Positions 44,629 through 46,193 of a stretch of DNA of 64,000 nucleotides are shown piece by piece. Under the pieces are notes generated by a model that was given only the letters and a program-made list of their open reading frames with translations, was not told the DNA's origin and searched no databases. The stretch's first letter is position 1. Every line of letters begins with the position of its first letter. Source of the stretch: an uncultured delta proteobacterium (GTDB lineage Bacteria > Myxococcota_A > Polyangia > Haliangiales > Haliangiaceae); the NCBI GenBank assembly GCA_963764695.1, contig CAVXTW010000015.1, positions 93,845-157,844 on the forward strand. Direction: 5' to 3'. The translations under genes were made by a program, and so were the position numbers.

Positions 44629-46193
44629 GTGGGGAAATCAATCTGGCTGGCCATCCTGCTGGGCGGGATCGGCTGCGGCTTCATCAGCGGCGGGTGCGAT
44701 TTCGGACCCCCGACGACGACGACGACGACGATGATGATGACGACGACGGCGACGACATGGACGCGGGCGCCGGCACCGGTCCGGTGACCATGGTGTCGGC
44801 CCTGCCGCCCGCCGGCGCCACGAACGTCGATCCGGACCTGCCGATCGTCATCACGTTCTCGTCGCGGGTCCGGCCCGAGTCGATCAACGAGGAGACGTTC
44901 GCGGTCACCAGCTCGCTGGGCACCGTGCCAGGCGGCTACACGATCGAGGAGGAGGTGGTGACCTTCGTCCCGGCCGTGCCGTTGCACCTCCTCGGCCACT
45001 ACGACGTGACCCTGACCGACATCATCGGCTACGTGGAGGGCCCGCAAGCCGAGCCGTACACGTGGGGATTCGACGTCTCCGACGGCGACTGGAGTGACCG
45101 CATCGACCTCGCCACCGACGTGGGCCAGTTCATCGATCTCGCGCGCAACCGGCGCGGCGACATGGTCCTCGCCTTCACCACGATCAGCGCGCCGGCCAGC
45201 GTCAAGGCGGTCCGCTTCGACTCCGGGTCGAGGTCCTTCTCGCTGCCCGAGCTGCTCGAGCAGAGCACGACATCGTTCGCCGGCGCGCGCGCCGCGATCA
45301 ACGAGGACCGCGACGTGGTGGTGGCCTGGTCGGCCGCCGCGGATCCGAGCACTCGCGGCTGGGCGCGCCGCAGCGGCGGCGCCTGGCAGGGCGCGACCAT
45401 CGAGCCCGGCACCGCCGGCAGCCTCGGTCTCACGTCCGGCGGCACCGCGGTCATGGCCACGACCTCCGGCGCGGACACGATGTTCGAGACCCTCGGCCCG
45501 CGGGCGAAGGCGTGGAGCGCCCCGGCGATCGTCGTCGCCGGCGCGGATCTGCTCGGCGTCCTGAGCTCCGCCGAACGGGCAGAGGTCATCACGTACGACC
45601 AGACCGCGCAGCAGCTGGTGGCCCGCGCCTACGTGGAGGGCACCGGGCTCGCCACTGCGCAGCCGCTGTCGGACCCGGGCATCGTGGCCGGGTCGGTGCA
45701 TCTTCAGTATCTCCCGGGCGCCGACGTGGTCGTCACGTGGGCACAGGACGACGCCCACCTCCGGTACGCGCAGTTCGACGGCGCCGCCGGCGTCTGGTCG
45801 CCGCCCGTCACGCTGGCCGACGGCGTCCTGGGCAGCGCGCTCTGTGCCAACGCCGCCGGCGCGCGCATCGCCGCGTTCCTCGATTCCGAGGGCACCATGC
45901 TGGCCGTCCACGCCGATCCCGGGCAGGACTTCTCGGCGCCTCAGAACCTGGGCTCGCCCGCGGGCATGCAGTACGCCCGCTGCGCCATCGACGACCTCGG
46001 CAACGGCGTGGTGTTCTGGGCAGCGGCGGGCGACAAGTCGTTTCACGCTCGCTACGCTGGCGGCAGCTTCACCCAGGCAGCCGAGCTAGGCGACGGCCCG
46101 ACCATGTTCGCCGCCGTCCCCGAGCCGGGCACCGGCCGCGTGCGCGCGCTCTTCTACACAGGAGAGAAGCTGACGACCCGCGCGTTCGAGTAG
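44629..46193 (+). CDS. Lipoprotein with poly-Asp linker and SbsA-Ig/Big_5-like domain; apparently disrupted by a 1-nt frameshift in a C5 run (44707-44711)
   Basis: GTG 44629 follows an AGGAGG SD and encodes [23 protein letters not shown], stopping at 44787 in that frame. The long ORF is in the -1 frame and shows D12-[24 protein letters not shown]. One extra C fuses the two. In the raw sequence only ATG 44757 to 46193 is continuous. Confidence 0.5.

Follow-up and report, generated by a model that had tools for sequence, protein, structure and literature searches.

The window, by which we mean the whole 64,000-nt stretch of DNA analysed here (71% G+C), contains a predicted lipoprotein gene whose leader and body lie in two different reading frames (Table 1). 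The Shine-Dalgarno sequence, GTG, C5 run, TGA, body frame and D12-G-D-D stretch that an earlier note had located here were all found at the same positions when the sequence was re-examined. The leader, read in frame A, carries two cysteines that fit the lipobox pattern, Cys16 (44674-44676) and Cys23 (44695-44697). The body is read in the frame of 44613 (-1 relative to 44629), which is open from 44604 and spans about 490 codons. From 44712 it reads D12-G-D-D-M-D-A-G, followed by a Big_5 domain (about 44778-45071), an all-beta, seven-bladed propeller-like domain (about 45114-46190) and the stop codon (46191-46193). The (GAC)n tract between the two parts has a period of 3, with 15.3 copies, 90% matches and 0% indels (TRF), and is thus a triplet array, as had been noted. 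The out-of-frame tail of the 52-codon ORF is this same tract misread and is conserved in none of the orthologues.

Table 1. Features of the split gene, codons at its leader/linker junction in the window and in related contigs, and other acidic-linker lipoprotein genes of the window
Feature	Position	Strand	Remarks
Shine-Dalgarno AGGAGG	44618..44623	+	5 nt 5' of GTG 44629; conserved in orthologues
Leader, frame A, true 5' end of the gene	44629..44709	+	27 codons; lipoprotein signal peptide
C5 run, point of frame loss	44707..44711	+	3n+1 nt short here
Out-of-frame tail of the 52-codon ORF	44710..44787	+	25 residues; TGA at 44785-44787
(GAC/GAT)n trinucleotide microsatellite	44711..44756	+	poly-Asp linker in frame B; poly-Thr/Met in frame A
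Body, frame B, including stop	44712..46193	+	acidic linker, Big_5 Ig-like, seven-bladed propeller-like domain
On-record gene call P0001, 478 aa	44757..46193	+	internal ATG within linker
Junction, window			GGA CCC CC·GAC GAC
Junction, L001			GGA CCC GTC ACC GAC GAC (G-P-V-T-D-D)
Junction, L002			GGC CCG CCC GAC GAC (G-P-P-D-D)
Junction, L003			G-P-V as well
Junction, L004			GGA CCC GTC TCC GAC GAC
Cys + acidic-linker lipoprotein	10905-10276	-	
Cys + acidic-linker lipoprotein	34625-34302	-	
Cys + acidic-linker lipoprotein	34794-36725	+	
Cys + acidic-linker lipoprotein	40144-39707	-	
Cys + acidic-linker lipoprotein	50433-49102	-	
Cys + poly-Asp lipoprotein, 344 aa	51698-50664	-	MSMSTRALRTGALLLALSVPTAC-GDDDDDGGDD...
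Cys + acidic-linker lipoprotein	62223->64000	+	runs to window end

The protein on record, P0001, carries no signal peptide and no lipobox, and no Shine-Dalgarno sequence precedes its ATG at 44757. It matches 92% of the repaired query at 100% identity and is represented by one member on one contig of 509,682 bp. We examined where the coding signal lies in the two frames. GC3 reaches 0.85-0.95 in the 44629 frame as far as about 44705. Over that stretch the 44613 frame has a value of only about 0.5, which rises to 0.95 or more from about 44750 on. The GC3 peak moves between frames at the C run and therefore the coding signal switches frame there. The same switch was obtained by tblastn of the closest orthologue, P0002, from the contig referred to below as L001: its residues 1-29 matched frame 1 (44629-44715) and its residues 27-518 frame 3 (44709-46190), the frame-A leader being 90% identical to P0002 residues 1-29. 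Eight neighbouring genes compared with L001 in this way each gave one HSP in one frame. Insertion of one C after 44711 restored a single 521-aa product carrying Big_5, in line with the earlier proposal that an extra C within 44707-44711 would join the frames. In the deposited window the mature domain is out of frame with the signal peptide; in the 11 orthologues described below it is in frame with it. Together, the comparisons support a single predicted lipoprotein gene, split at the leader/linker junction by a frame error of net 1 nt.

Two minor features of this region concern overlapping frames. At 44785-44792 the sequence TGAccATG places an ATG of the body frame 2 nt after the stop of the 52-codon ORF, with no Shine-Dalgarno sequence. 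Long off-frame or antisense ORFs (41238-46046, minus strand, 1602 aa, and 41087-44734, plus strand, 1215 aa) overlap the kinase and Big_5 genes; these are compositional artefacts of the 71% G+C and not genes.

When the repaired protein was searched against 5.8 billion protein clusters, only 12 proteins were recovered, P0001 and 11 orthologues of 511-525 aa (50-88% identity). Each of the 11 has the leader, the Cys, a D/G/T-rich acidic stretch, Big_5 and a conserved body of about 360 aa in one single frame. The gene order LigB, Ser/Thr kinase-TPR, split gene, phosphoglucomutase is kept in the two orthologues on long contigs, which are therefore positional orthologues. The view that leader and body belong to one split lipoprotein gene is thus borne out by single-frame orthologues and conserved synteny. 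The earlier note had called for this comparison and had named as counter-evidence orthologues that lack a signal peptide and begin at the internal ATG; none of the 11 does so. In the 40 nt upstream of the gene, GAGAGGAGGGGG is found in L001, L002 and L004 and GAGAGGGGGG in L003. The named relatives are Kofleriaceae MAGs (Myxococcota, order Haliangiales). A scan of JGI metagenomes with the invariant 24-mer of the leader gave one unrelated chance match (L008) and added no further relatives at the junction. Every member of the family (P0001-P0012) derives either from a soil or sediment metagenome or from a Kofleriaceae-like MAG. The family, combining Big_5 with a lectin-like propeller, is narrowly distributed and uncharacterised.

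We then considered the architecture of the repaired protein. Big_5 (PF13205) was detected by Pfam at residues 51-148 with E 8.3e-11 and 43 bits, against a cut-off of 23.6, and a precomputed assignment of PF13205 exists for all 12 family members. The lipobox test asked for K/R in residues 1-7, an uncharged hydrophobic core and a Cys at 15-35 within the pattern [LIVMFWSTAG]2-[LIVMFYSTAGCQ]-[AGS]-C, criteria that correspond to a rule of the PROSITE PS51257 type for Lgt/LspA substrates. The frame-A product has K3 and matches the pattern at both Cys16 and Cys23. In each of the 11 orthologues a Cys within residues 16-24 fits the pattern; five of these proteins carry no K/R in the first seven residues. 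P0001 has neither the K/R nor the lipobox.

The AF2 model of P0002, of moderate confidence (mean pLDDT 70.7), shows disordered residues 1-45 (pLDDT <50), a confident Ig-like domain at about 50-147 and an all-beta region at 160-518. Against the PDB (Foldseek), the all-beta domain matched PLL/PHL lectins (6t96, 6rgr, 5mxg and others) with E 5.5e-12 to 1e-10 and TM 0.61-0.67 normalised by target, over about 350 aligned columns at 13-16% identity. In the model, the fold would thus be that of the seven-bladed PLL/PHL propeller lectins of Photorhabdus across the whole propeller. The likeness is one of fold alone: the family differs, identity stays at 13-16% with no homology at the sequence level, and the family profile found nothing below E 0.86 among solved structures. 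About half of the outer-membrane lipoproteins of E. coli carry disordered N-terminal linkers (bioRxiv 10.1101/2021.01.05.425367), and the N-terminal linker modelled in P0002 would be of the same kind. As judged from its sequence, the protein would make sense only as an exported, lipid-anchored, predicted lipoprotein.

The junction was compared nucleotide by nucleotide. Over 12 kb, L001 and the window share 92.2% identity and are separated by 32 indels. Those within genes are all multiples of 3 save one, a 4-nt gap in the window at 44710; the others are intergenic, including four at window 49037-49092 that fall, in L001, in the stretch from the end of one gene (10328) to the start of another (10464). 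Removal of GTCA from the L001 sequence gives exactly GGACCCCCGAC of the window, with both flanks unchanged. At the C5 site the window is 4 nt shorter than L001 and L004 and 1 nt shorter than L002. The relatives read CCCGTCACC, CCCGTCTCC or CCGCCC there, and therefore C5 is not a conserved homopolymer. The run may rather be a deletion scar, CCC joined to CC, than an under-called C6, and C6, which would encode the G-P-P-D of L002, is one of several candidates for the true state. C5 could also be reached by another route, an in-frame 3-nt deletion followed by the loss of one base. The earlier suggestion of a homopolymer error hence stands as one possible route of error, but the gap relative to the two closest relatives is of 4 nt (GTCA/GTCT) and not C6 minus one C.

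Two more indels, each of 6 nt and in frame, separate the linkers of the window and L001 within 60 nt (window 44752-44770 versus L001 6128-6135, within 20 nt of each other), and the D12 stretch of the window is longer and purer than in any orthologue. From the D12 length and these indels, the linker is a length-hypervariable microsatellite region. Between the Shine-Dalgarno sequence and the GTG, a G run counts six in the window (44622-44627) and five in L001 (about 5995-6000), a 1-nt homopolymer change of the same class, 80 nt upstream of the break and harmless to the frame.

The body was examined for signs of decay. Its dN/dS relative to L001 is 0.255, neighbouring genes giving 0.13-0.31 and the two nearest lipoprotein genes 0.29 and 0.31. 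We found in the body no internal stops and no second frame-breaking indel, and a test for a decaying pseudogene against L001 revealed neither relaxed selection nor additional disabling lesions. The body being undecayed, the lesion, if real, would be very young.

Frame changes over the whole 64 kb were surveyed with a seven-state frame HMM on GC periodicity. All other same-strand changes coincide with a stop codon and a nearby start, and they are ordinary gene boundaries. With laxer switch penalties, the HMM reported zero stop-less switches and missed the known one too; as it was blind to the known break, a scan for orphan ORFs (Shine-Dalgarno sequence, start and hydrophobic leader) was used instead. 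Being GC-only, the HMM confuses plus and minus frames of equal third-position phase, and it labelled 44641-44739 as '-0'. The scan returned 44629-44787 as the sole leader-like orphan ORF in 64 kb, and the split gene is the only unexplained frame break in the window, of which about 58 kb is coding. In coding segments, 24 runs of G or C are exactly 5 nt long, one is 7 nt long (C7) and 6-nt runs are absent; therefore C5 is routine and in frame here, and C6 is unusual.

A related assembly, L005 (MAG MFD03602.bin.2.3), was examined for comparison. The MFD project is Nanopore-only, assembled with Flye and polished by one round of Medaka, and its authors acknowledge residual errors (PMC12313526). L005 shows three stop-less frame switches in 21.5 kb, at 5367, 18882 and 20584, orthologous to about 40016, 54749 and 56451 of the window. 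Compared with the window, all three are indels of 1 nt outside homopolymers, and one parts the leader from the body in the orthologue of the window's 145-aa lipoprotein. One break adjoins GATC motifs (GATCT[C]GATCG). L001 has zero stop-less switches in 13.5 kb. For these comparisons composition-defined segments were used, since tblastn of stop-to-stop ORFs was too noisy at 71% G+C, where off-frame and antisense ORFs are open. Breaks of such kind are demonstrably common in at least one related assembly, and the assembly of the window is much cleaner than L005. From a shared ENA/NCBI record signature we infer that the window assembly may be of the same class as those of MFD. L005 also holds a histidine kinase and a LytTR response regulator in one stop-to-stop ORF of 639 codons (1920-3836), possibly through a fourth indel near the kinase stop codon. 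In the window (37755-38812 and 38811-39602) and in L001, kinase and regulator are separate genes in different frames, overlapping by a few bp.

As the earlier note held, sequence by itself leaves both an error and a genuine mutation standing. As the cause of the break, we give slightly better than an even chance to an indel error made in consensus calling or polishing of a long-read metagenome assembly. By such an error, 3n+1 nt would be missing at 44707-44711, at the edge of the (GAC)15 microsatellite, and leader and body would have been put out of register. The organism would then make a normal lipoprotein of about 521 aa, the leaderless 478-aa call being an artefact of the error. This is favoured because all 11 orthologues are single-frame with the same architecture and neighbours, and because the Shine-Dalgarno sequence, GTG, leader and body are all intact save for one break. 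It is also favoured because the break lies right beside a trinucleotide repeat of 46 nt, in a linker that is hypervariable, and because the relatives are metagenome assemblies, one of which, the Nanopore-only L005, has three 1-nt breaks. Consensus callers are weakest at repeat-edge hypervariable sites, especially with mixed strains. From the split, its position, the single-frame orthologues and the otherwise intact gene, all read directly, we infer an artefact rather than a mutation. The locus shares with the consensus indel errors of Nanopore-only MAGs a single 3n+1 indel in an otherwise perfect gene, next to a repeat and with a truncated gene call. It differs from them in having one break per 64 kb and a 4-nt difference that is not a change of homopolymer length. 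An error is disfavoured because this is the sole break in 64 kb of an assembly cleaner than L005 and because the simplest repair, C6, is unusual in these coding segments. It is further disfavoured because one GTCA deletion suffices, while two events, an in-frame deletion and an error, are required on the error route. A serious competitor, rated somewhat short of an even chance, is a genuine recent frameshift, that is, a null allele or young pseudogene created by deletion of GTCA in an L001-like ancestor. A 52-aa pre-lipopeptide would then be all that is translated from the Shine-Dalgarno sequence and GTG; the body would be unmade, or made leaderless from ATG 44757 or 44790 and cytoplasmic, and the envelope function lost. 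This reading draws on the one-step origin of the window sequence by GTCA loss, with L001 and L004 both carrying the 4 nt, and on the lack of any other break in 64 kb, which suggests a low indel error rate of the assembly. C6 is, moreover, atypical of the coding DNA of this genome, and one frameshifted gene per window of about 55 genes is a normal expectation in a large free-living genome. Against it, 1.5 kb free of relaxed constraint or secondary lesions would require a very recent event, and frame-breaking deletions are selected against while in-frame indels are common in the linker. The searched databases hold no independent sequence of the strain, P0001 being the only record. A young frameshift pseudogene of a non-essential envelope protein would look alike in that a 5' deletion uncouples the export signal and leaves the rest undecayed; here neither a second lesion nor a raised dN/dS is seen. 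Parsimony on the 4-nt gap is roughly neutral between one deleterious 4-nt deletion and a neutral 3-nt deletion plus one error, such as a reading of CCCGCC or CCCACC as CCCCC. Whether assembly error or ordinary recent knockout, no new mechanism is involved.

The remaining readings leave the break a biological role or deny that there is one. A phase-variable contingency locus, in which slipped-strand mispairing would switch between C6 (on) and C5 (off), had been offered as an option by the earlier note and is here very improbable. A homopolymer in the 5' end of a surface-protein gene is a classic location of a phase switch, and the locus resembles in this the poly-G/C contingency loci of Neisseria, Haemophilus and Campylobacter, where one base in the 5' coding region switches the frame. 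Tracts in those loci are typically 7 nt or more; here the run is of just 5 nt and is absent from the relatives, no length series is seen among the orthologues and 24 C5/G5 runs stand in about 58 kb of coding sequence without frame breaks. The option is unsupported because the C5 run is not conserved. A real frameshift that is expressed split, as a leaky or re-purposed allele, seems to us similarly far-fetched. It would give a Thr/Met-rich lipopeptide, with a mature form of 29 aa after Cys23, together with a leaderless Ig-propeller protein, through termination-reinitiation at TGAccATG, or a trace of full-length lipoprotein, through non-canonical -1 slippage on CCC-CCG. Programmed recoding, with ribosomes slipping -1 on A-CCC-CCG or RNA polymerase adding a C, to give the full-length lipoprotein, appears more improbable still. 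The shift needed is indeed -1, as in frameshifting of the dnaX type, and an A-site CCG could re-pair with CCC after the slip. However, with the zero frame GGA CCC CCG, the heptamer A CCC CCG is not X XXY YYZ and the P-site CCC would have to re-pair with ACC; unlike dnaX, the site has no slippery heptamer, stimulatory structure, properly spaced internal Shine-Dalgarno sequence or conserved split. The 97 nt from 44704 to 44800 have an MFE of -32.4 kcal/mol; the mean for shuffled sequences is -35.3 (z +0.99), and 163 of 200 shuffles fold as well. The two-frame layout is found in none of the 11 orthologues and C5 is far shorter than the known tracts of transcriptional slippage. Just as hard to credit is a gene without any lesion, natively started at ATG 44757 (or GTG 44613) and cytoplasmic, with the 52-codon ORF a separate gene or noise. 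The gene caller did make exactly this 478-aa protein; but the orthologue alignment already contradicts such a reading, since every orthologue retains the 27 leader codons joined directly to the body. Neither 44757 nor 44613 has a Shine-Dalgarno sequence, GC3 is only about 0.5 in the 44613 frame upstream of 44705, and the orthologue alignment shows that the Met at 44757, within the linker, is not a conserved start.

The phenomenon is ordinary and of a known kind under either a consensus error or a young null allele, and its value is practical. The leaderless 478-aa call P0001 is a truncation, hence a mis-annotation, and the correct gene model starts at GTG 44629 and encodes a lipoprotein of about 521 aa; users of this MAG who count secretomes, lipoproteins or pseudogenes would be misled by P0001. 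The case also illustrates that a homopolymer at a frame break alone does not prove a homopolymer miscall, since a deletion may have made the run. If the lesion is real, one strain would recently have lost one of many acidic-linker envelope lipoproteins, a routine event. The finding makes no open question on the Big_5 and propeller family of Kofleriaceae-like soil myxobacteria testable.

Lipoproteins with a Cys followed by an acidic linker recur along the window: five others had been reported earlier, and we counted seven (Table 1). Besides the gene at 51698-50664, the six ORFs listed are intact, each combining a lipobox Cys with a signal peptide and a linker rich in D/E/G; this organism seems to favour acidic disordered linkers in its lipoproteins. 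The 344-aa protein encoded at 51698-50664 has a propeller region of the strictosidine-synthase-like/SGL type (PF20067 at 23.9 bits; PF08450 at 22.7 bits, short of its cut-off). Its gene lies in a segment of about 1.2 kb (50640-51836) that is absent from L001 and L005 at the same position and is a strain-specific addition.
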